Assembly (NCBI RefSeq): GCF_001017655.1 | Contig: NZ_CP010904.1 | Location: 1,380,001-1,412,000, forward strand | Length of the DNA stretch: 32,000 nt | Origin: Kiritimatiella glycovorans | GTDB taxonomy: Bacteria; Verrucomicrobiota; Kiritimatiellia; Kiritimatiellales; Kiritimatiellaceae | Reading direction: 5' to 3' | Shown: in pieces, positions 4,748 to 26,593 of the stretch | Layout of the letters: each line of letters starts with the position of its first letter | How positions within the stretch are numbered: position 1 is the first letter of the stretch | Position numbers and translations under genes: made by a program | The notes under the pieces: generated by a model | What the model was told of the DNA's origin: nothing | Database searches by the model: none | The model's input: only the letters and a program-made list of their open reading frames with translations

Positions 4748-4786
4748 GCCGTTGCCGTCCTCCGGTCTCCGCCTGCCGCACTGCAT

Positions 4787-4861
4787 GGTTGCCCGACCAG
4801 GACTTGAACCTGGACCCTGGCCTCCAAAGGGCCGTGTGCTGCCATTACACCATCGGGCAAC
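4787..4861 (-). tRNA. tRNA-Gln (anticodon UUG)
   Basis: The reverse complement is GTTGCCCGATGGTGTAATGGCAGCACACGGCCCTTTGGAGGCCAGGGTCCAGGTTCAAGTCCTGGTCGGGCAACC. It has a 7-bp acceptor stem GTTGCCC/GGGCAAC and a T-arm CCAGG-TTCAAGT-CCTGG. The anticodon loop is CTTTGGA, giving anticodon TTG. The 3' CCA is not fully encoded. End coordinates are +/-2 nt. Confidence 0.85.
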
Positions 4862-8010: not shown

Positions 8011-8173
8011 AGTGGAGATCCTCTCGCTGAATGGAATACCCGCAAACGGTACAAATGCGCTAACTCCGTGTCACGAACAATTGAGCGCTTCCGCCCGCGC
8101 CTCATCTTCATTGACCCCCGAACCCCGTGCGGCTAGCGTATACCGTTTTCCCGGCAAAGGGGATGCTGCACTG

Positions 8174-9109
8174 ATGAATGGGTTAAGGCAACGAACTGAA
8201 TACCTGGGGGTCCGGGCGACCCTGAACCTCGTGGCCCTGATGCCGGAACCGCTCACGCGCGTGCTGTTCAGGGGTCTCGCGCTGGGCTACTTTCTGGTCG
8301 GCCGACGCCGGCGCCGGCTGACGCTGACGAACCTGCGCGCCGCCCTTCCCGAGCTTCCCGCCCGCCGGAGGCTGCGGCTGGCGCTGGGCACATATCTTCA
8401 CGTCAGCGAAGTGGCGCTGCACAGCGCGCGGATGCTCTGCCGCCTCTGGACGGAGGCGGAGCTTGACGCGCAGGTGGACGACGACGCGGCGCAGCGGCTG
8501 CTCGCGCTCGAAGCGGAGCATGAAAAGGGGCTGATGATTGTCAGCGCGCATCTCGGCGACTGGGAGTTCATGGGCCGTTGCCTTGCGCGTACTCTGCGGC
8601 GCCCGAAGCATCTCGTCGCGCGCAGGAGCGATAACCGTCTGATCGAGGAAGACGTCGTGCGCCGTTTGCGCGGGGTATTCAACACCGGCATCATCTATAA
8701 GAAAGGCGCCGGGACGGCCATGGTCCGGGCCCTGCTCCGCGGCGAGCATGTCGGCATCCTGATCGACCAGAAACTCAGCCGCAAACAGGGCGGCATCGAG
8801 ACCGATTTTTTCGGCCGCCCGGCCCTGGCGGTCAGCGCGCCGGCGGCGCTCGCCCTCCGGTACGACATTCCCGTCGTCCCGGTCTTCCTCTTCCGTACCG
8901 GCCGCAACCGCTACAGGCTCGAGGTCGACGGTCCGGTCGACCCGCCCGCCGAAGGACAACCCGAACGCGAACGCATCGCCGATTTGACACAACGCCTGCA
9001 AAAGATTATCGAAGAGAAGGTTAGAGAGCATCCCGAACAGTGGTTCTGGATGCATGACCGCTGGCGGCCGTCGAAGAAAACAAAGAGGGCGCAAGAGAAT
9101 GTCGGATGA
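8174..9109 (+). CDS. LpxL/HtrB-family lipid A late (lauroyl/myristoyl) acyltransferase
   Basis: A bacterial lipid A biosynthesis acyltransferase pattern is present. It has an N-terminal hydrophobic anchor, the catalytic SAHLGDWE motif (HX4E), ILIDQK, and EHPEQWFWMHDRWR at the C-terminus. The ATG at 8174 was chosen. The track ORF from 7814 is an antisense extension over yebC. Confidence 0.85.
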   Translation: MNGLRQRTEYLGVRATLNLVALMPEPLTRVLFRGLALGYFLVGRRRRRLTLTNLRAALPELPARRRLRLALGTYLHVSEVALHSARMLCRLWTEAELDAQVDDDAAQRLLALEAEHEKGLMIVSAHLGDWEFMGRCLARTLRRPKHLVARRSDNRLIEEDVVRRLRGVFNTGIIYKKGAGTAMVRALLRGEHVGILIDQKLSRKQGGIETDFFGRPALAVSAPAALALRYDIPVVPVFLFRTGRNRYRLEVDGPVDPPAEGQPERERIADLTQRLQKIIEEKVREHPEQWFWMHDRWRPSKKTKRAQENVG

Positions 9110-9198
9110 AGACAGGATGCGCGCGGAAGCGGCAGGACGATTCGGAGATCCGTCCCTACCCCTGGGTACCGTCACGGACATCGCCACACGGGTTTCTC

Positions 9199-10182
9199 AT
9201 GCAGGCTAAGGCACTGGTGATCAGCGACGGCAAGCCGGGACATGTGAACCAGGCGCATGCCCTCTGCCGTCACCTCGAACTCCAGCCCGACACCATAGAG
9301 GTCGCCCACCGTCATCGGTTCGCGCGCGCTGCCACGTATGTGCTGGATCGTCTCGGCGTCAAATCGACCCTCCCCTTCACGATGCAGGCTGACGGACGGC
9401 GGTTTGATCTCCTGCAGTTGCGGCAGCGACGACATGAAACGGCGCTCGTCGTCTCCGCCGGCTCCGCGACCTACTACCCGAACAAGGTGATTGCCGCGGC
9501 CAGCCGGCGTCCGAACGTGGCCATCCTGAATCCCGGGGGGTACCGGCTCGATTTCGACCGCGTGCTCGTTCCCGAATATGACCGGCAGCCCGCGGCCGGG
9601 CCTGTCGTCCCCCTGCCCATCAACCTCTGCGACACCGACCCCGCCTATTACCGCGACCGGCGCGAGGAATTCCTTGAACGCCATCTGCCGCGGAAACGCG
9701 GAGTGGGCCTCATTATCGGGGGACCCAACCACGCCTTTGACATGAACCCCGCCGATATCAGGAGCTACGTGGAACGGATCTTCGACCTCACCCCGGAGCA
9801 CGAGCACTGGGTCACCACCTCGCGCCGCACCCCTCCGGAGGTCGAGGCGGTGATCGACCGGTTTTCCTTTGACTTCAAACTCATCTACAGCCGCGAACCC
9901 TACAACCCCATTCCGGCCTTCATCGCCCTCTGCGACACGTTATGCGTGACCGATGACTCGGCGTCCATGCTGAGCGAGTGCGCCTCGTTCGGGGATGCAC
10001 GGCTCGAGATACTCCCCAACCGTCCACTCAAAAGTCCCAACAAGTTCGAGCGGCTGGTCGAAGGGCTTCGCCGCCGCCGCGCGGCCCACGTATTCGACGG
10101 TTCGCTGGGCGACGAGCGTGAAAAAATTGATCTGGGACCGATCCTGCGGGAAGCGATCAATCCGATATTGAAGAAGTGGTAA
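9199..10182 (+). CDS. ELM1/GtrOC1-like (DUF1022, Mito_fiss_Elm1-type) putative glycosyltransferase-fold protein
   Basis: KALVISDGKPGHVNQAHALCRHL resembles the family N-terminus ..SDG..GH.NQ. A C-terminal VTDDSASMLSE block is present. An alternative start is ATG 9106, which forms an ATGA overlap with the acyltransferase stop but adds 31 non-conserved-looking residues. Confidence 0.6.
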   Translation: MQAKALVISDGKPGHVNQAHALCRHLELQPDTIEVAHRHRFARAATYVLDRLGVKSTLPFTMQADGRRFDLLQLRQRRHETALVVSAGSATYYPNKVIAAASRRPNVAILNPGGYRLDFDRVLVPEYDRQPAAGPVVPLPINLCDTDPAYYRDRREEFLERHLPRKRGVGLIIGGPNHAFDMNPADIRSYVERIFDLTPEHEHWVTTSRRTPPEVEAVIDRFSFDFKLIYSREPYNPIPAFIALCDTLCVTDDSASMLSECASFGDARLEILPNRPLKSPNKFERLVEGLRRRRAAHVFDGSLGDEREKIDLGPILREAINPILKKW

Positions 10183-10186
10183 TCCG

Positions 10187-11287
10187 ATGCATGTGGTCCA
10201 ACTCGTACCCGAACTCAACCAGGGCGGTGTCGAACGCGGGGTGGTCGAATTCAGCCGCGAACTGGTCAAACTCGGCCACCGCTCCACGGTACTGTCGGCG
10301 GGGGGGCGGCTGGTCACGCAACTCAACGCCGAGGGCGGCGAACACTACCCGGCCCCGGTCTGCAGCAAAAACCCGCTCACGGCACCCTGGCGTGTACAAA
10401 CCCTCCGCCGCCTATTCCGAAGTCTCGACCCCGACATCCTGCACGCCCGCAGCCGCGTGCCCGCCTGGCTGACGTATTGGGCCAACAAGCCCCTGGGGAT
10501 TCCGTGGGTGACCACGGTGCACGGGTTCAACAGCATCAGCGCCTACAGCCGGATCATGACGCGCGGCGACCGCGTGATCTGCGTCAGCCATCCGGTTCGC
10601 GAGCACATACTCCAACACTACGATGTATCCGAAGACCGCATCTCCGTGGTGCACCGCGGGGTTGATCCCCGCGTGTTCGACCCCGCCGCAATCGACCGGG
10701 AGTGGATCGACGCGTGGCTGGAGGAGCACGGCATACGAAATCGGCCGATCCTCAGCATGGTGGGACGCATTTCCGAACGCAAGGGATGCGGGACGCTGAT
10801 CCGGGCGATGAACCGGCTGCGCGACGCCCATCCTCAACTGCGTGCGCTGATTGTCGGGGACGCCCATCCCTCGAACCACGCCTGCCTCAGAACACTGCAG
10901 GCCCGGGTGCGCGAACTGGGGCTCGTGGAACGCGTCATCTTTACCGGCGGGATCGATCGGGTCCCCGAGGTCTACGCCCTCAGCCGGGCGGTACTCTCAT
11001 GCTCCCTGAAGCCGGAGAGCTTCGGTCGTTCGCTCACCGAGGCGCTGGCCATGAATACGCCTGTGATCGCTCCCCGGCACGGCGGCGCGCTCGACATTGT
11101 CCGGGACGGGGTGCAGGGATATCTCTTCGAGCCGGACGACGACGAGCAGCTCGCGGCGGCCATCGTCCGGGTGCTCGAACGGGAGTGGACGGGGCTGCGC
11201 GACCATGTGCTGCGCAACTTCACGCTCGACCGGATGACCGCGCAGGTGCTGGAGGTCTACGATTCGCTGACGGCGACGACCCGGTAG
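10187..11287 (+). CDS. GT4-family glycosyltransferase (RfaG/WaaG-like)
   Basis: The N-terminus is MHVVQLVPELNQGGVERGVVEFSRELVKLGH. The C-terminal GT-B half carries the EX7E motif ESFGRSLTE followed by ALAMNTPVIA. ATG verified at 10187. Confidence 0.85.
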   Translation: MHVVQLVPELNQGGVERGVVEFSRELVKLGHRSTVLSAGGRLVTQLNAEGGEHYPAPVCSKNPLTAPWRVQTLRRLFRSLDPDILHARSRVPAWLTYWANKPLGIPWVTTVHGFNSISAYSRIMTRGDRVICVSHPVREHILQHYDVSEDRISVVHRGVDPRVFDPAAIDREWIDAWLEEHGIRNRPILSMVGRISERKGCGTLIRAMNRLRDAHPQLRALIVGDAHPSNHACLRTLQARVRELGLVERVIFTGGIDRVPEVYALSRAVLSCSLKPESFGRSLTEALAMNTPVIAPRHGGALDIVRDGVQGYLFEPDDDEQLAAAIVRVLEREWTGLRDHVLRNFTLDRMTAQVLEVYDSLTATTR

Positions 11288-12303
11288 AGCGCTTCGATCT
11301 GCGGGATCACGGCTTCTTCACAGTACCTGCGGCGGTACCATTCGAGCGCGCATTGCGCCCGGCGCACGGCGTCTCCGGGGTTCTCCAGCGCGGTACGCAT
11401 CGCTTCGAGAAGCGAATCCGCCGAATCGACAGAGGCGAAAAAGGCCGAATCGTCCGCAAGCACCTCGGACGGGCCGCGCGTCTTCGTAGTCACAATCGGT
11501 ATTCCGCGCGCCATGGCCTCGAGCATGACGATCCCGAACGGTTCGTCGCGCGAGGGCAGCACGAAGAGATCGGCTTGATCGAGCGCGGATGAGACATCGT
11601 CGATCCAGACGCCGAGGCGCACACGGTCCGAGACTCCGAGTTTCCGCGCGAGGGAGGAAAGCGCGTCCTGTTCAGGTCCCCCGCCACCGAGGGTAAGCTG
11701 CAGGTCCCTGCCCTCCTCCACCAGCGCCGCAAACGCACGGAGAAGCAGGTCGAATCCCTTTTTCGGCACGTAGCGGCCGTAGGAGAGCAGCCGGCGCGCG
11801 GTCCGCGCTTCCCGGACGCGGGCCTCTTCCACGGCGGGAACCCGCGAAAAATTGGGAATGAGCCGCAGCCGATCCTCCGGCCAGTCGTGCTCGCGCGCGT
11901 AGTCGACCTGGTGCCGGGTGGTTCCGATCAGCACATCGACGTCGCGGTAACAGGAGAGATCCGCGTAATTGTGAAGTTTGGCCACCACGGGGACGCCGGC
12001 CCCCGCTGCGGCCCTGCCCCCCAGCTTCGCCGCCCGGCGCAGCTGCGTGTGTACCGCCGAGGGCCGGAAGGCCTTAAGTTTTGCGCGGATGCGGCGCACC
12101 GCCAGCCGGTCCCAGTCTCCGAGTACGCGAACCGGGGCGACGCGCACTCCACGGATGCCTTCCAGCTTTTCTTTCCCCTTGAACGCCGGATGGCAGACGG
12201 CCTGCACCTCGTGCCCGCGCGCCGACATCGCCAGCGCGGTATCCACGAAAGACCGTTCCGCACCGCCGAATCCTTTACTCAACATGATGTGCGTCATGCG
12301 CAT
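11257..12303 (-). CDS. GT4-family glycosyltransferase
   Basis: The N-terminus is IMLSKGFGGAERSFVDTALAMSARGHEV. The EX7E motif is EPFGIVMLE, followed by AMARGIPIV. ATG at 12301-12303. The 3' end overlaps the convergent GT4 gene by 31 nt. Confidence 0.85.
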   Translation of the reverse strand: MRMTHIMLSKGFGGAERSFVDTALAMSARGHEVQAVCHPAFKGKEKLEGIRGVRVAPVRVLGDWDRLAVRRIRAKLKAFRPSAVHTQLRRAAKLGGRAAAGAGVPVVAKLHNYADLSCYRDVDVLIGTTRHQVDYAREHDWPEDRLRLIPNFSRVPAVEEARVREARTARRLLSYGRYVPKKGFDLLLRAFAALVEEGRDLQLTLGGGGPEQDALSSLARKLGVSDRVRLGVWIDDVSSALDQADLFVLPSRDEPFGIVMLEAMARGIPIVTTKTRGPSEVLADDSAFFASVDSADSLLEAMRTALENPGDAVRRAQCALEWYRRRYCEEAVIPQIEALYRVVAVSES

Positions 12304-12518
12304 GATCGAACCCTACGCTCCAGTGGCGCGGCGCTCAACTGCGAAGGATCGTTTCAACGCTCAAACTCTCACCCTCCCGCCTTTTCTTTACGCACGGGGT
12401 CAGATAGGATTTCGTCACAAGGTCTCCGGAACACATGGAAGGCGGGAAGCAGGAGGTAGGTCGTGATCGGTGTCGAGCCCGAGGTCAGTATTCAGCCCCT
12501 GTCGTCCCGATCGTAATC

Positions 12519-13541
12519 ATGCGCATCGTACACGTCGACAATCTGCAGATCCGCCGCTACGGGCGCGCGAAGGTTTCGACCGGCCGCAAGCTGATGTACG
12601 GCATGGTCCGCAACAACTACAAGGTCTGTGAGTTCAGCGAACGCGACATCGCGCGCTTCGAAGCGCCGCTGAAGATCAAACCGCTCGGCGTGCGTATCGC
12701 CAACCGCCGCCTGATCGAGACCTGCGACAACTTCCATCCCGACCTGGTGCTCATGGGGCACTGCGATCTGATCGAAAACGGTACGCTTCGGGAGATCCGG
12801 CGCCTGCTGCCCTCCGTCAGGATCGCCTACCGGAACGTCGATCCGCCCTGGGAGGAGCGGAACATCGAACGTGTGCGGCGAAGGATGGAGGCGGCGGATG
12901 CGATTTTCATGACGACGGGCGGGGATTTTCTGCGGCAGTTCTGCACCGGAAAGAACAGGGTCGCCTGGATGCCGAACCCCTGCGACCCCGCCGTAGAGGA
13001 TCAGAATAATGCGGAGAAGACCGCCTTTGATCGGGATCTGGTGTTCTGCGGCGTGGGCCAGCCGACGGATGAGCGCTATCCTTTCATCGAACAACTTCAT
13101 GATGAACTCAAAGGCCGGCTGAAATTCGAGAGCTTCGGCATGCACGGCCACCCCGCCGTATGGGGACGCGACTACGACGACGTCATTGCGGGCAGCCGGA
13201 TGGGACTGAATCTCGACCGGTTTCGCGGCCACGAACTCTATTCCTCCGCCCGCATCTCGCAATTGATGGGCAACGGTCTGCTTACCGTCCTGTGGGAGCG
13301 CACGGATCTGAAGCGCTTCATCGACGACGGGATGGCGCTTTACTTTCGCGACATGGACGACCTCGTCGCGAAGCTGAACCACTATCGAAAACATGATGAA
13401 GAGCGCCGCGCCGTCGCCGCCCGCGGACGCGATTTCTATCAGCGCGCCTTCTCCGGCCGGGCCGTCAGCCGGTTTATGGTTGAAACCACGCTCACCGGCG
13501 AGGCAGGCGACGCGCCCTGGGCCGATCAGATCTACCCATGA
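12519..13541 (+). CDS. CgeB-like glycosyltransferase (DUF3880 + Glyco_trans_1_2-type C-terminal domain)
   Basis: The C-terminal block GLNLDRF....LYSSARISQLMGNGLLTV...FIDDGMALYFRDMDDLVAKLNHYRKHDEERRAVAARGRDFYQRAFS follows the Glyco_trans_1_2 pattern. ATG at 12519 (MRIVHVDN) was chosen over the track start at 12435. Confidence 0.7.
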   Translation: MRIVHVDNLQIRRYGRAKVSTGRKLMYGMVRNNYKVCEFSERDIARFEAPLKIKPLGVRIANRRLIETCDNFHPDLVLMGHCDLIENGTLREIRRLLPSVRIAYRNVDPPWEERNIERVRRRMEAADAIFMTTGGDFLRQFCTGKNRVAWMPNPCDPAVEDQNNAEKTAFDRDLVFCGVGQPTDERYPFIEQLHDELKGRLKFESFGMHGHPAVWGRDYDDVIAGSRMGLNLDRFRGHELYSSARISQLMGNGLLTVLWERTDLKRFIDDGMALYFRDMDDLVAKLNHYRKHDEERRAVAARGRDFYQRAFSGRAVSRFMVETTLTGEAGDAPWADQIYP

Positions 13542-13556
13542 ACGGAGCTGCAACGG

Positions 13557-14471
13557 ATGAAGACCCTTCTCCACGTCGGATACCCCAAGTGCGCCAGCAC
13601 CTACCTGCAGAAGATCGTGTTCCCGAAGGCGGGCGCGTACTCGAACATCGCCTTTGCTCCGGCAGATGAAAAAGGAGAACCCCTCAGGCGCGATTTCGAT
13701 CCGGACCGTTTTCGAAGCCTCGTACACCGGCATCGCGTCGACGATCTCAGCGAACCCGAACGGCTGGTGGTTTCCTGCGAAGACTGGTGCGATCATCTGA
13801 CCGCGCCGTTTGTGGACAATTTCTTCGCCTACAACGGACTCGACCGCGCCCGCTTCGAGTTTTCCAACCAGCGCATCGCGAATAACCTCAAGACCGCTTT
13901 TCCGGACGCCTCCGTGATCGTCGTGCTGCGTGATCCGATCGAGTGGTGCCGCTCGCGCTACAAGTCGCTGTTCCGCGGCGGGCGGGTGGATGCTCCGTTC
14001 GAACGATACCTTCATCCGCTGACCGAGACCTACGACACCGCCGTCGAACGCTGGCGGTCGCTGTTCGGCGCGGAGCGCGTCCTCGTGATTCCGTACGAGC
14101 TCATCCGGGCCGACCGACAGGCTTTCGTCGACCGCATCACGGAGTTCATCCGTCCGGGACTGCGGGTGGACGCCCCGGATCGACGGGTCAACGCCGCCCC
14201 CGACCTGGCCCGCGAGGTCTTTTTTGAGCGCAAAACCAAACGCCTGCGACGCGCGCTCCGCAGCCGCCGGATGGGGTGGCTCTACGCTCCGGCCCGGGCC
14301 GCGCTGACCGTCGCCGCCAGACCTGCCCTGCGCCGCACCTGGGGCGACGCGCCCTTCGAGGTTCCCTTCGATCCGGCCAGGGTGCCGGAGACGATGAAGG
14401 CCTTCGCCGAGGCCGACCGGAAAGTGGAACGGATGACGGGGCTGGATCTCAAGGCGCTCGGGTATCCCTGA
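13557..14471 (+). CDS. Predicted PAPS-dependent sulfotransferase, atypical family A (paralogue 1 of 4)
   Basis: A 5'-PSB-like loop HVGYPKCASTYLQ sits at residues 6-18. A 3'-PB-like strand-helix VIVVLRDPIEWCRSRY is present. It shares SCEDW, RVLVIPYE and the C-terminal TGLDLKALGY with the three minus-strand paralogues. Confidence 0.75.
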   Translation: MKTLLHVGYPKCASTYLQKIVFPKAGAYSNIAFAPADEKGEPLRRDFDPDRFRSLVHRHRVDDLSEPERLVVSCEDWCDHLTAPFVDNFFAYNGLDRARFEFSNQRIANNLKTAFPDASVIVVLRDPIEWCRSRYKSLFRGGRVDAPFERYLHPLTETYDTAVERWRSLFGAERVLVIPYELIRADRQAFVDRITEFIRPGLRVDAPDRRVNAAPDLAREVFFERKTKRLRRALRSRRMGWLYAPARAALTVAARPALRRTWGDAPFEVPFDPARVPETMKAFAEADRKVERMTGLDLKALGYP

Positions 14472-14597
14472 GGGGAGCGGGAGACGGGAGAGCGTGTGAG
14501 TGAGAAACCAAATGCCTGAGCAGGATGCAGGGGTTATCTACGAAGAGTTCCATACAGCTATTTTCCAAGACCACGAACACCCCCGGGAACCCGTGAC

Positions 14598-15404
14598 ATG
14601 GGCCTGACGAGCAAATTCATGAGGACGGAAAAGCCGGTGCGGAGTGCACGGGAGTACCTCCGCAATCGGAGCCGGGGGCTCCGATGTGACCGGCCGCCGG
14701 TATTTATCGTGGGCTGCGGACACAGCGGCACCTCGCTGATGCTGCGCATCGTCGACATGCACTCCTCGATTTACGGCGTTCCTTTTGAGAGCCGCGTGCT
14801 CTTGCGGTCACGATTTAAAATCCGGATGGCGGAGGCGCTCTGGCGCAAAAACGCCGTCGCCGCCGCCAAGCGCCGCTGGGCGGAAAAAACGCCCGCGCAT
14901 GTCTACTGCATCGACCGAATCTTCCGAATATGGCCGCAAGCCCGGGTGATCCTCATGCGGCGCGACGGGCGCGACGTGGCGGTATCGCTGCGTGAGCGGT
15001 GGGGGGACTTCGACCGCGCGGTCCATCGCTGGATCGAAGATAATCGCGCGGGCGATGCGTGGTGCGGCGACCCGCGTGTGTTTGAGCTCCGGTACGAGGA
15101 TCTCGTCCGGGACTTCGAGCCGCGGATGCGGGAGGTGATGACCTTCCTGGGAGAGCGGTTCGAAGAAGGACTGGCAGACTTTCACACCCAGACGACGGTT
15201 TACGGGGGAGAGTCCGCGGGGATCCGGAAACAACCCGACCTGCCCCCGAACCGCGCCCTCCGGAAAGCGCAGCTCAGGAACCCCCTTTACGACGGATCGG
15301 GACGCTGGCGCGACGAGATGAGTGCAGACGAGAAGTGCCGGTTCAAAGAACGGGCCGGCGATCTGCTGATCGACCTGGGGTACGCCGGGGATCTCAACTG
15401 GTGA
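14598..15404 (+). CDS. Sulfotransferase (Sulfotransfer_3-like, P-loop type)
   Basis: The 5'-PSB motif is FIVGCGHSGTSLMLRIV, the 3'-PB motif is VILMRRDGRDVAVSL, and LRYEDLVRDFEPRMREVMTFLG is typical of bacterial sulfotransferases. ATG at 14598; an alternative ATG lies at 14619. Confidence 0.8.
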   Translation: MGLTSKFMRTEKPVRSAREYLRNRSRGLRCDRPPVFIVGCGHSGTSLMLRIVDMHSSIYGVPFESRVLLRSRFKIRMAEALWRKNAVAAAKRRWAEKTPAHVYCIDRIFRIWPQARVILMRRDGRDVAVSLRERWGDFDRAVHRWIEDNRAGDAWCGDPRVFELRYEDLVRDFEPRMREVMTFLGERFEEGLADFHTQTTVYGGESAGIRKQPDLPPNRALRKAQLRNPLYDGSGRWRDEMSADEKCRFKERAGDLLIDLGYAGDLNW

Positions 15405-15414
15405 AGCCTATGCT

Positions 15415-16371
15415 TCAACCCCCGTATCCCAGGGCCGCGAAGTCGATATCCGTCATCTCAGAAAGACGGCGGCTGCATGCCTCCAGCACGGGGCGGAGTT
15501 CCTTGCGCGAGGACTCGGGGACCACGACCCGGTCGCGCCGGTTTCCGTACTGCAGCGCGTAGCGCGCACGGTGCACCGTCTTGACCCAGAAGCGCGCCGC
15601 TTCATAGCGCGCCTTTTCCGCCAGGGTGGCGCGCGCGCCCGTGGGACGCAGGGTCTGTTTCAGGTGCGCCTTATCGCGCATCACCGCCACCTCCCGGCGG
15701 TAGAGCGCGCCCTGATTGCTGGGCGTGTGCGGGGCGCGGACCGTCGCGCCCGGGGCAATCAGTTTTGCCGCCGCCTCGGCGAAACGCTGCGGATCCTCAA
15801 GGATCCACTCGAAAGGCACCACCCGCACACGATCCGCGCCGAAGGCCTCGCGGAAACGGGCCACGGTGCCGTCGTATCCCTCCAGTTCCGGGACGAGCAA
15901 CTCTTCGATCGGCGCGGACGTCTGATGGTGCCTGTAGTGCATGCGGTACTTCGAGATCGCCCAGGCGAGCGGTTCGCGGACGACGATCAGTACTTTGGCT
16001 CCCGGCCAGGTGCGCGCGAGATTCTCCACGATGCGCGCATTCCGGGGCTCATACGGAGTGGGATCGAGTCCGTTCAGCTCCGCGGCCCGGAGGAGCAGGT
16101 CTTCGATCCCGCGAAACCAGAGCTCCACCCAGTCCTCGCAGGAAACAATATGGCGCCGGCCGGGTTCCGGTCCGGGCACACGGCAGGCCCCGGCGCGTTC
16201 GCGAAGCACCTCCGGGTCCATGTCCGCCAGGAAGGGCAGCATTTTCGTTTCGCGCGATTCCGGCGCGAGATTCGACTGATCGCCGAGCTGCGGAAAGATA
16301 CACTGCTGCAGGTAGGTGCTCGCGCTTTTGGGATAGCCCACATGAAGGATCACTTCTTCGCCGCCGCTCAT
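15415..16371 (-). CDS. Predicted sulfotransferase, atypical family A (paralogue 2)
   Basis: Shared family motifs are present: HVGYPKSASTYLQ, VSCEDW, VLIVVREPLAWAISKY, RVRVVPFE, and the C-terminal TDIDFAALGY. The ATG at 16371 overlaps the upstream stop (ATGA), with GGAGGAGG upstream. Confidence 0.75.
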   Translation of the reverse strand: MSGGEEVILHVGYPKSASTYLQQCIFPQLGDQSNLAPESRETKMLPFLADMDPEVLRERAGACRVPGPEPGRRHIVSCEDWVELWFRGIEDLLLRAAELNGLDPTPYEPRNARIVENLARTWPGAKVLIVVREPLAWAISKYRMHYRHHQTSAPIEELLVPELEGYDGTVARFREAFGADRVRVVPFEWILEDPQRFAEAAAKLIAPGATVRAPHTPSNQGALYRREVAVMRDKAHLKQTLRPTGARATLAEKARYEAARFWVKTVHRARYALQYGNRRDRVVVPESSRKELRPVLEACSRRLSEMTDIDFAALGYGG

Positions 16372-17369
16372 GGCCTCCTCCCCTCCCGCCGCGGCCCGGT
16401 CCGGTAGCCGTACCGCTCCAGATCCAGACCGGTGCGCTCGCAGAGCCTGCGCAGACCGGGGGCGAACGCATCCCGTATCCGCGCCGCGCAGGCCTCATCC
16501 ACTTCGATATCGAAAGGCTGATCCCCATACCGCAGAAAGTTCTTGAAGCGGACCTGCGTGGAGACCTTCCAGCGGGCGAGACGGTGCCTCAGCCGGGCCC
16601 GCAGGCTGCGGCACTTGCACGGCTCCCACTCCGCCTTGACCCTCGCCTTCTCCCGTCCCGTCTCGACGGTTCGCCGCAGCGGCGGGGCGGCATTTAATTT
16701 CCTCTGCGGCGCGGCGAGCTCGATGCCGGGGGCGATGAACGAGGTCACCTGATCGACGAAAGCGGAGGCGTCCTCCCGCAGCAGCTCGAACGGGATCACA
16801 CGAACCTGCGGGGGGCCGAAAAGTTCTCTGTAGCGCTGCTCCATCCCATCGTAATCCTCCAGCGGTTCGCGCGTGAATTCCGCGAAGGTCGAAGAGGTCT
16901 GTCCCGCCCGGTAGTGCATCTTGTAGCGCGAAAGGGCCCACTGCACCGGTTCCCGTATCACGATGAGGATCCGGGCGCCGGGGTGTTCCGCTTTAAGGCG
17001 CGCCGCGATATCCGCATTGTCCCGCAGACATCGATCCGGATCGACTCCGTGCCGGCGAAGATTGCGGGCGAAATGGTCCTCGAATCCCCGGAACAGGAAT
17101 TGCACGAAGGCCTCGCACGATATGATGGAGTGCGGTCGATCGCTCCGCACGCAGGTCCGCCGGTTTTCGATGAGGCGGCGATAGCGCTGCGGGTTCATAT
17201 CGCTCATCAGTAGATAGCATTTTTCATCCCACGGCGCGGCGGACAGGTTCGTAACGTTGCCGAGTTCCGGAAAGATGAGCTGCTGGAGATAGGTACTCGC
17301 GCATTTCGGGTACCCGATATGGAGCACCGGAGGATGGGCCTCGGTGATATGGGACGATTCCGTGTTCAT
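16368..17369 (-). CDS. Predicted sulfotransferase, atypical family A (paralogue 3)
   Basis: Shared family motifs are present: HIGYPKCASTYLQ, ISCEAF, ILIVIREPVQWALSRY, VRVIPFE, TGLDLERYGY. The ATG at 17369 (MNTESS...) was chosen because it forms an ATGA overlap with the upstream stop and has GGAGGG upstream. The 148-codon N-terminal extension in the track overlaps the neighbouring gene in another frame. Confidence 0.75.
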   Translation of the reverse strand: MNTESSHITEAHPPVLHIGYPKCASTYLQQLIFPELGNVTNLSAAPWDEKCYLLMSDMNPQRYRRLIENRRTCVRSDRPHSIISCEAFVQFLFRGFEDHFARNLRRHGVDPDRCLRDNADIAARLKAEHPGARILIVIREPVQWALSRYKMHYRAGQTSSTFAEFTREPLEDYDGMEQRYRELFGPPQVRVIPFELLREDASAFVDQVTSFIAPGIELAAPQRKLNAAPPLRRTVETGREKARVKAEWEPCKCRSLRARLRHRLARWKVSTQVRFKNFLRYGDQPFDIEVDEACAARIRDAFAPGLRRLCERTGLDLERYGYRTGPRREGRRP

Positions 17370-18325
17370 ACCCCCCTGCCCTCCACGGGATAACCCCAGC
17401 GGGCGAGATCGATGCCCGTCTCCTGCTGCAGTCTCGAGCAGGACGCCGCGAGTCCCGGCCGCAGCCGCCGTACCGCTTCCGGCGACACGGCACTGCGGTA
17501 AATCTTGTTCCCGTAGCGGAGCCGGAAGAACGGACGGGTGCAGGGAAGCAGTGCGCGAGCCACACGCCGCAGCGGTCTCCCCGAGCCTTGATGTCCGCCG
17601 CGGTGCTTGAGACGGTAGCCCGCCCGGCGGTATTCCACTTCCGCGCGGCTCGAGGGGGCGGCATTCATCGGCAGGGAAGGCACCTCCGGCCTCAGGTCCG
17701 GGTCCGCGAACGACACCGCTTCGCGCACGAATCCCTCGGGGTCGGCGCGCAGCCTCTCGTAAGGGATCACGCGCACATGCTCGCGCCCGAACCACCCGGC
17801 GTAAAGCCGCCACACCTCATCGTATCCTCCGCCCGGTTCATCCAGACAGGAATCCAGCGGCTCGTCGACCAGATCCCGTCGATACCAGTGATCGTAACGC
17901 GAAACGGCCCAGTCCAGCGGGTTTCTTATCACGATCAGAATGAAGGCGTCCGGCCACGTGCGTGCCAGGTTGCGGGCGATGACTTCGTTACGGTGATCGT
18001 AAGGAGCGGGATCAATGCCCCGGCGCAACGCCACGCGTCCGAAGTTGCGCTCGAACCCGCGGAAGGGAAGTTCGACGTAACTCTCGCAGGACAGGATCCG
18101 GAACGGGATCGTGTCGTCCCGCCTGCGCATATGACGCGCCACCATGATCCGGTATGCCTCAGGTGTCATCCCGCGGTGGTACAGCAGCGCCTTGTCTTCA
18201 TAGGGCGCGTCCGAGAGATCCGCAAAATTGGGGAGCTGGGGAAAGATGAGGCGCTGCAGGTACGTGCTGGCACATTTCGGGTAGCCGATGTGCACCACGG
18301 TGCGGGTGGGCTCCTCCTGCTTCAT
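17366..18325 (-). CDS. Predicted sulfotransferase, atypical family A (paralogue 4)
   Basis: Shared family motifs are present: HIGYPKCASTYLQ, LSCESY, ILIVIRNPLDWAVSRY, VRVIPYE, TGIDLARWGY. The ATG at 18325 (MKQEEP...) forms an ATGA overlap with the upstream stop, with GGGAGG upstream. Confidence 0.75.
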   Translation of the reverse strand: MKQEEPTRTVVHIGYPKCASTYLQRLIFPQLPNFADLSDAPYEDKALLYHRGMTPEAYRIMVARHMRRRDDTIPFRILSCESYVELPFRGFERNFGRVALRRGIDPAPYDHRNEVIARNLARTWPDAFILIVIRNPLDWAVSRYDHWYRRDLVDEPLDSCLDEPGGGYDEVWRLYAGWFGREHVRVIPYERLRADPEGFVREAVSFADPDLRPEVPSLPMNAAPSSRAEVEYRRAGYRLKHRGGHQGSGRPLRRVARALLPCTRPFFRLRYGNKIYRSAVSPEAVRRLRPGLAASCSRLQQETGIDLARWGYPVEGRGV

Positions 18326-19287
18326 CGGCACCGCACCTCCCGGACGCCGCTGCCATCCGCCAGCTCCATCGTGTTCCGCTCGATCTCGTCCATCCCGGGG
18401 CGCCACAGCGGCGCGGCAATATAGCGCACGGGGACCCTGAAGGGGTTCCAGTAGTATTCATACTTGGCGCGGTTAAAGCCCGCGCCGCTCCAGACCACGT
18501 GCGGAAGCCTGCAGAGCGCGGCGAGGTGGATCGGACCGGAACTCGGGCCTGCGAGGACACGACTGCTGCGCATGAGATTAAACAGTTGATCGAGCGGGAT
18601 TCCGCGGTAATCGTCGCATCCTTCGACCGCGAGCGCTGCGGCGGACGTGCCGACGCATGCGACCGTAAGGCCTTTCGAGCGCAAACGGCCTGCAAACCGG
18701 GCCCAGCCCTCCGCATCCCAGCCGTTCCGGTCGCCGCTGTGGTTCTTCTTCGTGGAACGCGCGTGGAGAAGCACGTCGAAGGCAAGTCCCGGATCCTGCC
18801 GACCGTAGGCCACGAACGTCTGGTCCAGAAAAAGCCGTGAGCTCAAATAGGGCCGGCGCTGATTGTAGCCGATGATTGATTGCCCCGTGATGTGCCTCGT
18901 GTATTCGCGGCCGACCGCCACCGCGTCCGCTCCGCTGGACCCGTCTTCACACCGGTACCCCGAGATCCCTTCCCCGCCCGGGCGATACGCCACGAACTCT
19001 CCGCAGAAATCACGGTAGAGGGGCTCCATCTCCGGACGAGAAGCCACGATGACCTGATCGTACCTGCGGGCCTCCCGGCGAAGCATCCCCTGCCAGCAGA
19101 AGAGTTCCCATCCGAATTCGCCGATCCAGGGGCCCGCCAGCAGGATCTTTTCGCCGTGGACCGTATGGCCTTTCCTGATCTCGAGCCGCGGGCGGCGGCG
19201 ACGCAGATTCCGCACCCAGCGAAAGGGGCGCCCCGGTGATCCGTGCGATTTCCGGGCCCCGGGGCCGGGTGGTGCGGAGGAACTCAT
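18322..19287 (-). CDS. Divergent GT9-like (heptosyltransferase-fold) glycosyltransferase
   Basis: The C-terminal motif VLAGPSSGPIHLAALCRLPHVVW resembles the GT9 G.DSGP.HLAAA.G.P motif. The N-terminus ILLAGPWIGEFGWELFCWQG sits in place of the GT9 ..SALGD.. loop. The ATG at 19287 forms an ATGA overlap with the upstream stop and has GGAGG upstream. Confidence 0.55.
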   Translation of the reverse strand: MSSSAPPGPGARKSHGSPGRPFRWVRNLRRRRPRLEIRKGHTVHGEKILLAGPWIGEFGWELFCWQGMLRREARRYDQVIVASRPEMEPLYRDFCGEFVAYRPGGEGISGYRCEDGSSGADAVAVGREYTRHITGQSIIGYNQRRPYLSSRLFLDQTFVAYGRQDPGLAFDVLLHARSTKKNHSGDRNGWDAEGWARFAGRLRSKGLTVACVGTSAAALAVEGCDDYRGIPLDQLFNLMRSSRVLAGPSSGPIHLAALCRLPHVVWSGAGFNRAKYEYYWNPFRVPVRYIAAPLWRPGMDEIERNTMELADGSGVREVRCR

Positions 19288-20114
19288 CCCGGCACCTCCA
19301 TGTGCAATCCGTACCCGGCGTCCCAGTCCAGCAGTTCCCGGCAGACCGCGTTCCACCACTTCCGATCCTGCTCCGTGAACCACTCCATGGGGTCGCGTCG
19401 ATCATTCCGAATCACCTGTTCCCGGTTGCGCGGTCTGCTTCGCTCCGCCATCTCCGATTTGGTGGAGCGATGCACGGCGGCGCTTACGACCTCTTCGCCG
19501 GCCGGAATACCGAAGTATTCGCAGGCGGCCTTCAACGCCGCCTCCGGGTCCCGCTTCATGTTTTCATATTTAAGAGTCATCGTCGTGAAAAACGGATCGC
19601 ACACGACGCGGCCCCACCCGTTCAGAAACTCGAGCTGACGCCATATATCATTGAAATAGAGCTTGTCGCGCACATCACCGCGCAGGAAGCTGGAAAAATC
19701 CACGCCGTAGCGCGCCTTCCATTTTTCGTAGTGCGACACCAGCGCGTGCTGCGGGTCGCGGACCAGGATCAAATATCTCGGAAATTCAAGCCGGTCCCGG
19801 ACGGGGCGCATAAACATGAGACCGTGCGGCAGCGAATGGGAACTCACGATCCGCGGAAGGCCGGAATACTTGGGGGGCTGTTTCGGGCGCCCGATAAAAT
19901 CCATATCCTGGATGGTCTCCGGTGCGGGCTTTTCGTAGACCTCGGCCATGCAGAGGCTGAGCATGTAACGGAGCCAGTGCGTGCCCGACTGCTGCATGCT
20001 CAGGATGTGACCGTCGAATTTCCGCCGCCGCACCATCGTCGTATTGAACCAGCGATGGTTCAGGCATCGCATCCGGAACGCACGTTTTATGCCGCTGCTG
20101 AGGACGTCATTCAT
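19284..20114 (-). CDS. Sulfotransferase (Sulfotransfer_1-like)
   Basis: The 5'-PSB-like motif is ILSMQQSGTHWLRYML (compare PKSGTTW). The 3'-PB-like motif is RYLILVRDPQHALVSHY, and LKYENMKRDPEAALKAACEYFGIP is also present. The ATG at 20114 overlaps the upstream GT9 stop by 8 nt. Confidence 0.75.
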   Translation of the reverse strand: MNDVLSSGIKRAFRMRCLNHRWFNTTMVRRRKFDGHILSMQQSGTHWLRYMLSLCMAEVYEKPAPETIQDMDFIGRPKQPPKYSGLPRIVSSHSLPHGLMFMRPVRDRLEFPRYLILVRDPQHALVSHYEKWKARYGVDFSSFLRGDVRDKLYFNDIWRQLEFLNGWGRVVCDPFFTTMTLKYENMKRDPEAALKAACEYFGIPAGEEVVSAAVHRSTKSEMAERSRPRNREQVIRNDRRDPMEWFTEQDRKWWNAVCRELLDWDAGYGLHMEVPG

Positions 20115-21021
20115 AATCGCTGCCGCTTTCGTTCAGATACGGGGCAAGCCGATCGAGCGCCGCCCCGATGTCGATGTTTTCATAATACGGTCCCACTTCT
20201 TCCATGCTCCGGACCGGCGGTCTGCCGTCCGCATAATATACACGATCGTAAACGACCGTCGACCAGGGACCGAACGGCGCGCTCCGCACCCAGCTCGTCG
20301 CGCCGAAGATGCCGATCGTCGGGGTCTTCATCGCCGCCGCCAGGTGCATCGGCGCGGAGTCGGTCGAGACCACCAGGTACGCCTCCGCAAGCAGCCTTTT
20401 CAGCCCCTGCAGATCGAGCGTACCCGCCGTGCAGCTCGCCTCGACCGGAAGCGAGGCCGTAAGACGCTCCGCGTAGTCGGCCTCGTCGGGGCCGCCGCTG
20501 ACCATAAGCGGCAATCCGTAACGCTCCCGGAGCAGGACCGCGATCTGCGTCCATTTCCGGTCCGGGAGCCGTTTTGAACGCCACCGTGCGCTGGAGCCCG
20601 GATGGAGCACGATGTAATCGCGCGGTTTGGACTCGAAAGACTCGTCCAGAGGCCCGAGCAGGCCGGAGGGTTCCAGAATGCGGCGGAAATTATCGCAGGC
20701 GGGAACGCCACGGGGCATGCCCCGGTTGCTGTACACCGTCTTCGCTCCGCACAGCGCGGCTATCAGCTTCGACCGATCGTTGTTCTGGAGGTCGAGCATA
20801 ACCTCGAACCGGGCACGCCGCAATTGCATGACCAGGCCGGCGACCGACCGCAACCGTTTATCCGGGAGTACGATCGACGCCGGAAATTCATCGCGCAGGA
20901 GTTCGCGTCCGGCCGGCGACGTGACCATTGCGGGTCGCACCTTCAGCGCGCGCAGAAAAGGAAGCGCGGCGGCGATATCGCCCAGCGCACTGAACCGCAT
21001 CGCCGCCGCGCGTTCACTCAA
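20107..21021 (-). CDS. GT9-family glycosyltransferase (LPS heptosyltransferase-like)
   Basis: RFSALGDIAAALPFLRAL is the GT9 N-terminal motif, and STDSAPMHLAAAMKTPTIGIFG is the GT9 C-terminal motif. I prefer the TTG start at 21021, which is preceded by AGGAGG with a 7-nt spacer and overlaps the lpxK stop by 8 nt. The track ATG at 21054 and the ATG at 21000 are alternatives. Confidence 0.8.
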   Translation of the reverse strand: MSERAAAMRFSALGDIAAALPFLRALKVRPAMVTSPAGRELLRDEFPASIVLPDKRLRSVAGLVMQLRRARFEVMLDLQNNDRSKLIAALCGAKTVYSNRGMPRGVPACDNFRRILEPSGLLGPLDESFESKPRDYIVLHPGSSARWRSKRLPDRKWTQIAVLLRERYGLPLMVSGGPDEADYAERLTASLPVEASCTAGTLDLQGLKRLLAEAYLVVSTDSAPMHLAAAMKTPTIGIFGATSWVRSAPFGPWSTVVYDRVYYADGRPPVRSMEEVGPYYENIDIGAALDRLAPYLNESGSDYE

Positions 21022-22171
21022 AACAGATCCTCCTGATCCAGTCGCGAAACGCATCGTCGCCGCTCAGCATCTCGATCTCGACGCGCAGAAACAGGATCGG
21101 GACGTCGCGCCGCTCGAGAAACGGCATCCGTACCGCATCCTTCTCCGTGGTCAGGATCGCCTCGGCCCCGGCGGCGATACTGCGGTTGACGAATTCGATG
21201 ACCTCCTGCTGCGAGTAGCGGTGGTGGTCGGCGCGACGTCCGGTATGGACGAGCTCCGCCCCGAGCCGGCTCAGTTCCGACTCGAAACTCTCGGGTACGG
21301 CAATCGCGGACAGGGCCGCGACCCGGCGGCCCCGCAGCCACTCCAGCCCGTAGCGCTCCTGCCGGAAGACGTCCTGCACGTACTTGGAGCGGTGACAGCA
21401 CTCGGAGATTTCGGCGTGCGGGTTGAGTTCCCGCAGCTTCCGCCGGAGTTCGGGCGCGCCGCCGGGACCGCACTTGGTGATGAAGATGAAACCCGCCCGC
21501 TTGATGTTCCGCATCGGCTCGCGCAGCAGGCCGCGGGGCAGCATGCGCTCGTACCCGAACGGCTGCCGGGCGTCCACCAGCACGATGTCCAGCCGATGCC
21601 GCAGCGAGAGATACTGAAAGCCGTCGTCGAGAATCAGGGTGTCGCAGCCCTGCCTGCGGATCGCATACTTTCCGGACTTCACGCGGTCCTTGTCGACCAG
21701 CACGGTGACCTCCGGCAGATTCGAGGCGAGCATGTACGGCTCGTCGCCGCTCATCGCCGAATCGAGCAGGAGACGCCGCCCGTCGGACACCACACGGGGC
21801 GGCGAGCCCTCGCGGAGGTTGAGCTTCTGCGCCAGGCGGTCGTGGACGGGCGGTTTGACGCTGCGGTAGCCGCGGCTGAGGATGGCCACCCTGCGCCCCG
21901 CCTGCTCCAGGGCGCGGGCGAATACCTCCACCACCGGCGTCTTTCCGGTGCCGCCGACGGTCATGTTGCCGATGCTGATCACCTGGCATCCGAGATCGTT
22001 CGGGCGGATGAGTCCGGCGCGGTACAGCGCGAGACGCAGCTGGACCGCGCCGCCGTAGAGCCAGGACAGCGCGCGCAGCGCACCCCTCCCCGCCGCGGCG
22101 CGGCGTCCGGTGATCCGCCCCTCGATCAGGCCGAGTACGTATTCTTCCAGTTTTTCCTGCCAGCGCTGCAT
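21014..22171 (-). CDS. lpxK: Tetraacyldisaccharide 4'-kinase (lipid A biosynthesis)
   Basis: [20 protein letters not shown]...[19 protein letters not shown]...ILSRGY shows the LpxK P-loop architecture. The C-terminus has DHH.Y.......[13 protein letters not shown] at 22169-22171. Confidence 0.9.
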
Positions 22172-22225
22172 TAAAATCTACCCGCCCGAAAACGATCTTG
22201 CCTGGAACCGTTGCTCCCGATAAGC

Positions 22226-26572: not shown

Positions 26573-26593
26573 CTGTCCCCTCCTTTTGATCAC

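Follow-up and report, generated by a model that had tools for sequence, protein, structure and literature searches.

Gene content and organization of the locus

The window analyzed here is the whole stretch of 32,000 nucleotides (nt) from the chromosome of Kiritimatiella glycovorans, with a G+C content of about 64%. Between its positions 8174 and 22171 it carries a block of genes in which six sulfotransferase genes lie among lipid A biosynthesis and glycosyltransferase genes, and an earlier note on this DNA, made from the sequence alone, had proposed that the block directs the synthesis of a poly-sulfated lipo-oligosaccharide (LOS). The block is fully tiled by 14 open reading frames (ORFs) with no gaps, and their codon bias is of the coding type (G+C content at third codon positions, GC3, 0.72-0.88). 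According to Pfam and NCBIfam profile scans and, for GT9x, a fold comparison, the encoded proteins are LpxL and LpxK, six glycosyltransferases and six sulfotransferases (Table 1). The identities given in the earlier note to the lipid A genes and glycosyltransferases were borne out by these scans, its "CgeB-like" protein being a member of the Glyco_trans_1_2 family (GT1_2).

Table 1. Genes of the block at positions 8174-22171 and the matches on which their assignment is based
Gene	Positions	Strand	Assignment	Matches and features
lpxL	8174-9109	+	LpxL-family late (secondary) lipid A acyltransferase	Pfam Lip_A_acyltrans 7e-43, 147 bits
ELM1	9106-10182	+	ELM1-like predicted GT-B glycosyltransferase	Pfam Mito_fiss_Elm1 (PF06258) 2e-40
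GT4a	10187-11287	+	GT4 glycosyltransferase	Glycos_transf_1 2e-33, Glyco_transf_4 1e-31; EX7E at residue 277
GT4b	11257-12303	-	GT4 glycosyltransferase, single-gene unit	Glycos_transf_1 1e-36; EX7E at residue 254
GT1_2	12435-13541	+	Glyco_trans_1_2 glycosyltransferase	PF13524 1.5e-16
ST-A1	13557-14471	+	Sulfotransferase	Sulfotransfer_3 48.8 bits, 1.4e-12; Sulfotransfer_1 5e-6
ST-B	14598-15404	+	Sulfotransferase, TPST/Stf-like lineage	Sulfotransfer_3 80.2 bits, 3.4e-22
ST-A2	15415-16371	-	Sulfotransferase, last gene of the lpxK operon	Sulfotransfer_3 37.3 bits, 4.5e-9; PKSAST loop
ST-A3	16368-17369	-	Sulfotransferase	Sulfotransfer_3 36.8 bits, 6.6e-9; 4-nt overlap on each side
ST-A4	17366-18325	-	Sulfotransferase	Sulfotransfer_3 34.2 bits; Sulfotransfer_1 28.5 bits
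GT9x	18322-19287	-	GT9-fold glycosyltransferase of divergent sequence; marks the sulfotransferase module, in which it is single-copy	Fold match; 321 aa
ST-C	19284-20114	-	Sulfotransferase, cytosolic-SULT-like lineage	Sulfotransfer_1 54.9 bits, 1.1e-14
GT9	20107-21054 (alternative start 21000)	-	GT9 glycosyltransferase, heptosyltransferase family	Pfam Glyco_transf_9 5.9e-27, 95 bits
lpxK	21014-22171	-	Tetraacyldisaccharide-1-P 4'-kinase	Pfam LpxK 5e-79; TIGR00682 180.7 bits (cut-off 91.95)

The largest transcriptional unit suggested by the gene order is a seven-gene one on the minus strand, comprising lpxK, GT9, ST-C, GT9x, ST-A4, ST-A3 and ST-A2 in this order. From GT9/ST-C on to ST-A3/ST-A2 the neighboring genes overlap by 8, 4, 4, 4 and 4 nt, the start of GT9x overlapping the stop of ST-C (ATGA), while lpxK and GT9 overlap by 41 nt if GT9 starts at 21054, or are 13 nt apart if it starts at 21000. 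These junctions agree with the earlier claim that four sulfotransferase genes are chained to lpxK and the two GT9-like genes in one operon of overlapping genes. On the plus strand, lpxL, ELM1 and GT4a form a unit with junctions of -4 and +4 nt, and GT1_2, ST-A1 and ST-B another one with spacings of 15 and 126 nt. Scans of positions 7900-22400 for sigma-70 consensus promoters and for terminators gave counts no different from those in shuffled sequences, so that the operon structure is deduced from the gene overlaps only. The 4-nt overlaps would imply co-translation of the sulfotransferases with lpxK.

Within 8174-22171, Pfam and transmembrane-segment scans revealed no gene of an exporter, polymerase, flippase, priming phosphoglycosyl transferase, PCP/OPX protein or ABC-2 transporter, and no transmembrane-like hydrophobic segment was seen in any of the 14 proteins. 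The absence of exporter and polymerase genes had been noticed before; our scans extend it to membrane proteins of any kind. Since they lack such segments, all 14 enzymes should be soluble or peripheral cytoplasmic proteins, which is consistent with the use of nucleotide sugars and 3'-phosphoadenosine 5'-phosphosulfate (PAPS).

The sulfotransferases

A protein was regarded as a sulfotransferase if its score was above the Pfam gathering threshold for Sulfotransfer_3 and/or Sulfotransfer_1. All six ORFs for which this function had been claimed exceed it, and every motif string quoted for them in the earlier note was found. The four ST-A paralogs share 34-40% identity among themselves, whereas no similarity of ST-A to ST-B or ST-C is detectable by BLAST; hence, there are three lineages, one of them with four copies, as had been proposed. 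The ST-A subfamily is a small one: of 1.84 billion protein cluster representatives, 15 belong to it at E<=1e-30. ST-A1 is identical to the NCBI protein P0002, annotated as a sulfotransferase of K. glycovorans.

The cofactor-binding elements of the ST-A proteins are well preserved. The 5'-phosphosulfate-binding (5'-PSB) loop GYPK[CS]AST is present in ST-A1 to ST-A4, with a lysine that is nearly invariant among 43 sequences; R134 and S142 of the 3'-phosphate-binding (3'-PB) motif are invariant in the same set, and invariant H, G, R, S and E occur across the 43. ST-A1 has both the canonical PKCAST form of the loop and the 3'-PB motif RDPxxWxxSxY. The AlphaFold model of ST-A4 (pLDDT 93.3, pTM 0.90) retrieved, as its top 50 fold matches in PDB, 49 sulfotransferases and the SULT-family retinol dehydratase 1x8k, the best match being the bacterial sulfotransferase 3rnl, followed by heparan-sulfate 3-O-sulfotransferases and NDST with bound PAP(S). 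Heparan-sulfate 3-O-sulfotransferases and NDST are glycan-acting PAPS enzymes. The identity to these nearest solved folds is 10-16%; the 5'-PSB loop and the Arg/Ser pair of the 3'-PB motif are common to all, while the ST-A proteins differ from them in an additional helical C-terminal region of approximately 90 residues.

The other two lineages are more divergent. For ST-B, the best PDB sequence matches were TPST1 (4e-5) and TPST2, both weak, along with a weak likeness to the mycobacterial Stf-type proteins 2zq5 and 2z6v; its EKTP and RDGRDVAVS motifs are invariant among orthologs. ST-C matched amine sulfotransferase and SULT2B1 (5e-8 to 3e-6). The 3'-PB residues are invariant among orthologs in both proteins (R122/S130 in ST-B, R119/S127 in ST-C), and yet the 5'-PSB loops, GHSGT in ST-B and QQSGTHW in ST-C, contain no lysine or arginine. 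Of the PAPS-pocket elements that the earlier note proposed to check, the 3'-PB Arg/Ser pair is present in all three lineages, while the basic residue of the 5'-PSB loop is present in ST-A only. Since the loop variants of ST-B and ST-C are kept in orthologs at 33-59% identity, they point to an altered mode of cofactor binding or catalysis rather than to decay.

The paralogs are old, judging by their 34-40% identity, and ST-A1 and ST-A4 each have their own orthologs elsewhere, which argues for distinct specificities. We consider it highly probable that the proteins are active glycan sulfotransferases acting on the product of the neighboring glycosyltransferases.

Lipid A genes and glycosyltransferases

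LpxL contains the HX4E signature within SAHLGDWE (residue 124) and matches the NCBIfam lauroyl acyltransferase models with E-values down to 1.5e-41, yet its scores are under the equivalog cut-offs. LpxK has the P-loop GGTGKTP at residue 73, and its gene is divergent from trmB, as in relatives. As to the glycosyltransferases, the best NCBIfam matches of the GT4 and Glyco_trans_1_2 proteins were glycosyltransferases of exopolysaccharide (EPS) or PEP-CTERM systems, under cut-off, and the ELM1-like protein had no match in a PDB sequence search. The ELM1-like and Glyco_trans_1_2 families are those of GtrOC1 and GtrOC2, the predicted LOS outer-core transferases of Acinetobacter baumannii (PMC4172580).

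The divergent GT9-like gene, GT9x, needed closer analysis. The longest ORF begins at 19383, and the start was corrected to the ATG at 19287; the resulting length agrees with that of the NCBI GT9 family protein P0059. No Pfam family was matched at E<=0.01, the threshold of PF01075 not being reached, although some homologs carry precomputed PF01075 matches, and a PDB sequence search gave GT9 matches of sub-significant score only. The GT9 fold itself was confirmed: the model (pLDDT 87) retrieved with Foldseek, at 1e-7 to 9e-6, the GT9 structure 3tov, TibC, WaaF (1psw) and WaaC as top matches, and the PSSGPxHLAA motif of GT9x lines up with DSAPMHLAAA in the neighboring GT9. The possibility that GT9x is a transferase of 3-deoxy-D-manno-octulosonic acid (Kdo) was rejected, as there was no Glycos_transf_N signal and the fold matches were of GT9.

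The sole NCBIfam match of GT9x is the TibC/Aah heptosyltransferase (1.2e-3). Given that TibC is also among its best folds and that the best sequence matches of ST-B in PDB are tyrosylprotein sulfotransferases, one could imagine that the locus serves glycosylation and sulfation of a protein, with GT9x acting like TibC/Aah and ST-B like a tyrosylprotein sulfotransferase or RaxST. We regard this as very improbable: the matches in question are weak, GT9x is fitted equally well by WaaC, WaaF and an uncharacterized GT9 protein, the ST-A model resembles carbohydrate sulfotransferases, and neither the window nor the related loci contain an autotransporter or a candidate substrate protein.

The locus in relatives and in other lineages

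For comparison we used 80 lpxK loci (1.08 Mb), one genome per species, in which LpxK is 56-67% identical to that of K. glycovorans (tblastn). All of them come from metagenome-assembled genomes (MAGs), labeled nearly always as Kiritimatiellia, Lentisphaerae, Victivallales, Verrucomicrobiota or the Planctomycetes-Verrucomicrobia-Chlamydiae (PVC) group, with a few unclassified or other. The arrangement common in these relatives is trmB divergent from lpxK and GT9 behind lpxK (tblastn match in 67 of the 80 loci), followed by unrelated genes, e.g., GT2 or MurJ. No homologs of the sulfotransferases, GT9x, ELM1 or GT1_2 were found by tblastn in any of the 80 loci, and hidden Markov model searches for sulfotransferase ORFs gave none there, compared to six in the window; for this reason the clustering of sulfotransferases in the window is not a matter of chance. 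It also follows that the sulfotransferase extension is not the ancestral state of the class.

Close homologs of the ST-A proteins and GT9x (45-61% identity) are present on metagenomic contigs, designated below by our labels or, for one of them, as the ENA contig. The most informative is L168 (G+C 54%, LpxK identity 66%), which, judging by this identity, probably belongs to a relative within Kiritimatiellia. One strand of it encodes lpxK, gmhB, the hldE adenylyltransferase (hldE-II), hldD, the hldE kinase (hldE-I), gmhA and an MsbA-like ABC transporter whose best NCBIfam model is MsbA_lipidA (TIGR02203, 1.5e-133), and then, on the same strand, ST-C (59%), a Sulfotransfer_2 protein, GT9x (48%), ST-A4 (55%), ST-D and ST-B (46%). 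In L169 and L170, gmhA, the msbA-like gene, ST-C, an insert of acyl-carrier and AMP-ligase genes, GT9x, ST-A4, ST-D and ST-B follow each other on one strand, and after ST-B the opposite strand carries the gene of a 269-aa protein and ST-A1, plus GT1_2 in L169. The ENA contig combines lpxL, ELM1, two GT4 genes, GT9, GT1_2, ST-A, the gene of a 269-aa protein, three adjacent Sulfotransfer-domain genes (266, 312 and 316 aa) and GT9x, with a carbamoyltransferase gene, a Sulfotransfer_1 gene, an MsbA-like ABC transporter gene and ADP-heptose genes further along; an Inositol_P (CysQ-type) gene adjoins its lpxL, and a GDSL protein is also encoded. L167 and L171, which differ in G+C content, contain six or seven sulfotransferase genes of four Pfam families together with GT4, GT9x, ELM1 and GT9 (two copies of the latter in L167, one in L171). 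In L082 and L083 (G+C 43%), genes of an adenosine 5'-phosphosulfate (APS) kinase and of UDP-sugar dehydrogenases are added.

The orthologs keep characteristic positions in these clusters. Those of ST-A4 (51-55% identity) always adjoin GT9x; those of ST-B (43-46%) are present in every related module; that of ST-C (59%) comes immediately after the msbA-like gene in both L168 and L169; those of GT1_2 (60-61%) adjoin the module in L081 and L169; and in the related sulfotransferase clusters ELM1 adjoins GT4 and once also lpxL. GT4a and GT4b have orthologs in L167 (37 and 42%, respectively), and ST-A1 has one in L169 (45%). The order GT9x - ST-A4 - ... - ST-B is kept across lineages with a G+C content from 42 to 64%. 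Comparison of gene orders thus indicates a portable cassette of GT9x and several sulfotransferases, with or without GT1_2, which in several cases, but not in all, is embedded in runs of lipid A, inner-core and flippase genes.

The survey of lpxK neighborhoods proposed in the earlier note had, therefore, a mixed outcome: the 80 lpxK loci of relatives lack the sulfotransferases, whereas elsewhere orthologous modules do stand beside lpxK, ADP-heptose and MsbA-type genes or beside lpxL, ELM1, GT4 and GT9. This neighborhood comparison is the strongest new support for that note's interpretation, which, as a whole, is partly supported.

The same data bear on the possibility that the sulfotransferase genes are an unrelated or partly decayed insertion, some of them encoding pseudo-enzymes, with no poly-sulfated product at all. 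Their absence from all 80 lpxK loci, the loops of ST-B and ST-C devoid of the canonical lysine or arginine, and a truncated ST-A1-like fragment in L081 could be explained in this way. Nevertheless, the six ORFs are intact with GC3 of 0.72-0.80, the cofactor motifs and the module order have been maintained over the divergence described above, and the 4-nt overlaps would couple translation to lpxK, so that decay appears hardly credible.

Some features of the related modules have no counterpart in the window: according to tblastn, the 269-aa and 196-aa proteins, ST-D, Sulfotransfer_2 and MsbA of these modules have no hidden homologs there. Two of these companions (L168 13622-14431 and 14527-15117; L081 3001-4496), the 269-aa protein with an LDLD (DXD-like) motif and the 196-aa protein with a GPSCSGKT P-loop, matched no Pfam or NCBIfam family. 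The APS kinase encoded in L082 (4770-5393) is 79% identical to a protein from a Bacteroidales MAG, and the module in L082 and L086 has a G+C content of 42-43%; the module may thus occur outside Kiritimatiellia, possibly by horizontal transfer. When this APS kinase was used as a query, no K. glycovorans entry was among the matches listed, the list being filled by unrelated close homologs. Some versions of the module (L169 4646-8425, L172 5275-8031) include carrier-protein/thioesterase and AMP-ligase genes, or an Acyl_transf_3-SGNH O-acyltransferase gene, and the sulfated glycan may also be acylated or carbamoylated in the organisms of L169, L172 and the ENA contig. Finally, environmental contigs (L087-L166, e.g., L088 9998-15068 and L090 8362-14720) often encode members of a wider GT9x-like family (28-41% identity, WIGEFGWE motif), whose neighbors there are GT2, GT-D, Glyco_trans_1_2 and Sulfotransfer_1/_2 genes, as well as dUTPase and HD-domain genes; the hosts of this wider family could be viral.

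A proposed pathway and its alternatives

The findings above are best accommodated, in our opinion, if the locus serves the assembly of lipid A and its core oligosaccharide and has the GT9x and multi-sulfotransferase module built into it, sulfation being performed by cytoplasmic PAPS-dependent enzymes at several sites of the lipid A-core oligosaccharide before the MsbA flip. We assign to this a probability of roughly 0.55. The arguments are as follows: the coupling to lpxK through overlaps, the presence of two GT9-fold enzymes and of the ELM1-like and Glyco_trans_1_2 proteins, the lack of export machinery in the block, and the strings of lpxK, ADP-heptose, msbA and sulfotransferase genes in other lineages.

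In the proposed pathway, LpxK and LpxL would complete lipid A, the Kdo transferase being encoded elsewhere. GT9, GT9x, GT4a, GT4b, the ELM1-like protein and Glyco_trans_1_2 would then extend the core oligosaccharide at the cytoplasmic face of the inner membrane, and ST-A1 to ST-A4, ST-B and ST-C would move sulfate from PAPS onto different positions of the oligosaccharide. The product, a poly-sulfated LOS, should be exported by an MsbA-type flippase and then by the Lpt pathway, and its sulfate esters would provide the negative charge that in enterobacteria is provided by core phosphates. In this scheme we infer the acceptor, the number and positions of the sulfates, the PAPS supply and the physiological role. 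K. glycovorans, described in pure culture in 2016, is a moderately halophilic anaerobe from a hypersaline mat, and its strain L21-Fru-AB is the first cultured representative of Kiritimatiellae; the paper describing the species reports LPS (lipopolysaccharide) genes and the production of exopolymers and never mentions sulfotransferases (PMC5148204). A heavily sulfated surface glycolipid, which this organism probably possesses, could form a hydrated anionic surface in a hypersaline, sulfate-rich and possibly phosphate-poor mat.

Several observations weigh against this reading. The window contains no waaA, msbA, ADP-heptose or PAPS-synthesis genes. GT9 matches the NCBIfam models of heptosyltransferases I, II and III with E-values of 3e-17 to 4e-13, all under cut-off, and the MsbA-like protein of L168 scores 446 bits, under the MsbA equivalog cut-off of 602. 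To these should be added the loops of ST-B and ST-C and the 0 of 80 lpxK loci with sulfotransferases, which means that the linkage to lpxK is confined to certain lineages and might result from insertion at a site that tolerates it. The wider GT9x family occurs in contexts that are not obviously those of LPS. Furthermore, Wzm/Wzt-type ABC-2 genes (ABC2_membrane, ABC_tran) directly follow the module in L081, and L082 has, beside the UDP-sugar dehydrogenases, a nucleotidyltransferase gene (NTP_transferase), both typical of polysaccharide loci.

The two last-named contigs lead to another explanation, namely, that the product is a sulfated O-antigen, capsule or EPS built on undecaprenyl phosphate and that the genes for its export, of the ABC-2 (Wzm/Wzt) or Wzx/Wzy type, lie elsewhere, the adjacency to lpxK and lpxL being the usual clustering of envelope-glycan genes. 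GT4 and Glyco_trans_1_2 are, indeed, generic polysaccharide glycosyltransferase families, as also reflected by their NCBIfam matches. Besides, K. glycovorans forms exopolymer-bound aggregates (PMC5148204), and related Pontiella strains make a sulfated EPS similar to glycosaminoglycans (GAGs) and have a glycosyltransferase cluster of their own containing sulfotransferase genes (PMC7356697). However, all the machinery that such a polymer would need (priming transferase, flippase, polymerase, PCP/OPX, ABC-2) is missing from the window, where 0 of the 14 block proteins have a transmembrane-like segment, and the only transporter found repeatedly inside the related clusters is of the MsbA type, located between the ADP-heptose genes and ST-C. 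GT9 enzymes, of which there are two here, are known from the LPS inner core and from autotransporter heptosylation and are not known from polymer repeat units, and four sulfotransferases seem to be translationally coupled to lpxK. On balance, we find a sulfated polymer rather unlikely.

The solubility of all the enzymes of the block would also be in line with another sulfated small glycoconjugate, a glycolipid or an osmolyte, that is not attached to lipid A and resembles the mycobacterial Stf0-dependent sulfolipid or archaeal sulfotrehalose. The weak similarity of ST-B to 2zq5 and 2z6v could be viewed in the same light, and so could the acyl-carrier, AMP-ligase and thioesterase genes in the clusters of L169 and L172, which hint at an acylated product; K. 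glycovorans is, moreover, a moderate halophile with a sugar osmolyte, sucrose (PMC5148204). Still, six glycosyltransferases are many for an osmolyte, and it would be left unexplained why lpxK, lpxL, GT9, ADP-heptose genes and the MsbA-type flippase gene recur next to the module, which makes this possibility an improbable one.

Returning to sulfation of the lipid A-anchored core, a bolder version of it can be put forward, although tentatively. K. glycovorans and a few uncultured lineages would produce a lipid A-anchored oligosaccharide with up to approximately six sulfate esters by means of the portable GT9x and multi-sulfotransferase cassette plugged into the lpxK/ADP-heptose/msbA pathway, sulfate taking over from core phosphate as the principal group that carries negative charge and bridges cations in the outer membrane. 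If true, sulfate would substitute for phosphate in LPS much as sulfolipids do for phospholipids, and there would be a genetic route to axinelloside-like poly-sulfated lipoglycans.

Comparison with known systems

No published description of a lipid A/core locus with multiple sulfotransferases was found, either for K. glycovorans or for other organisms, in a search that left most subscription journals outside; the suggestion in the earlier note that no such operon had been described agrees with this. What the literature does yield is LPS sulfation by LpsS, clusters for sulfated capsules and EPS, and axinelloside A of a sponge. LpsS of Sinorhizobium meliloti is reportedly a cytoplasmic PAPS-dependent sulfotransferase that acts on LPS and is, as such, a precedent for the PAPS-dependent LPS sulfation proposed here. 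The enzyme is named in PMC12445080 and PMC7816849. To our knowledge, LPS sulfation is normally the work of a single enzyme, such as LpsS, which is not known to be encoded within a lipid A/core operon; in K. glycovorans, by contrast, there are six sulfotransferases belonging to three lineages, and four of their genes share an operon with lpxK.

In its general design the locus is comparable to the enterobacterial waa (rfa) locus with WaaC, WaaF and WaaQ. In both, GT9 and soluble glycosyltransferases would extend Kdo-lipid A at the cytoplasmic face and dedicated enzymes would add anionic groups to the core before the MsbA flip (the kinases WaaP and WaaY in the case of waa), and L168 likewise has the ADP-heptose pathway and an MsbA-type gene within one string. 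The difference is that sulfate would be taken here from PAPS, while there phosphate is taken from ATP; besides, GT9 is below the heptosyltransferase equivalog cut-offs, and no WaaP/WaaY-like kinase, waaA or waaL genes were found in the window. The locus may thus represent LPS core assembly with anionic decoration, performed with a different chemistry and an unusual enzyme expansion.

The LOS outer-core locus of A. baumannii is similar in that PF06258, PF13524 and GT4 proteins build a lipid A-anchored oligosaccharide without O-antigen machinery; it has no sulfotransferases, and its glycosyltransferase assignments are mostly predictions (PMC4172580). Glycosyltransferase genes interleaved with sulfotransferase genes, one to a few in number, are known from the capsular polysaccharide cluster of Vibrio sp. 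KMM 8419 (PMC11641403) and from the putative GAG-like cluster of Pontiella sulfatireligans F21, which also belongs to the class Kiritimatiellae (PMC7356697). Such EPS and capsule clusters contain flippase, polymerase, exporter or undecaprenyl-phosphate transferase genes and no lipid A genes (PMC7356697), whereas in the window the lipid A genes are present and the polymer machinery is absent. With respect to the product, axinelloside A from the sponge Axinella infundibula is named a "highly sulfated lipopolysaccharide" (Warabi et al., 2005, cited in PMC4052302). Being a natural, probably microbial poly-sulfated lipo-oligosaccharide, it is chemical proof that such molecules exist, but nothing links it genetically to the K. 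glycovorans locus. The cyanobacterial Xss/synechan cluster is one more sulfated polysaccharide cluster with glycosyltransferases and sulfotransferases. The backbone of axinelloside A is reportedly not lipid A.

The charge of the LPS core is attributed to phosphate, Kdo and uronic acids. Sulfation of the kind proposed would, if true, be a new outer-membrane chemistry, affecting cation binding, hydration, resistance to phages and antimicrobial peptides, and recognition by innate immunity. The locus would be the first gene set for a poly-sulfated LOS and would add three lineages of bacterial carbohydrate sulfotransferases with a potential use in enzymatic sulfation. As K. glycovorans is available in pure culture (PMC5148204), the prediction is directly testable.

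Flanking genes and other observations

The genes on the left of the block are rplI, ssb, rpsF, pth, rplY, prs, tRNA-Gln and those of a cupin protein, a metallophosphoesterase, RuvC and YebC; on the right there are trmB, lemA and the genes of an M48 protease, HemE, a solute symporter and a GH127 protein. Since the flanks consist of housekeeping genes, the block is chromosomal and lies within the core genome. Just one RNA gene was detected in the window, that of tRNA-Gln(TTG) at 4786-4859 (minus strand), which separates the cupin gene from prs.

The metallophosphoesterase gene (5733-6671, plus strand) is located 1.5 kb upstream of lpxL. Its product has a sub-threshold NCBIfam match to YaeI (4e-24) and another one to LpxG (1.6e-17, 63.8 bits, cut-off 350), the latter being the Chlamydia-type UDP-2,3-diacylglucosamine hydrolase; in this PVC bacterium the protein may take the place of LpxH.

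The G+C content drops to about 55%, compared to 64%, at 26070-26605 (minus strand). This region holds a pair of genes with a 4-nt overlap, which, as read from their translations alone, encode a YefM/Phd-like antitoxin (26330-26605, 91 aa) and a YoeB/RelE-type toxin (26070-26333, 87 aa).

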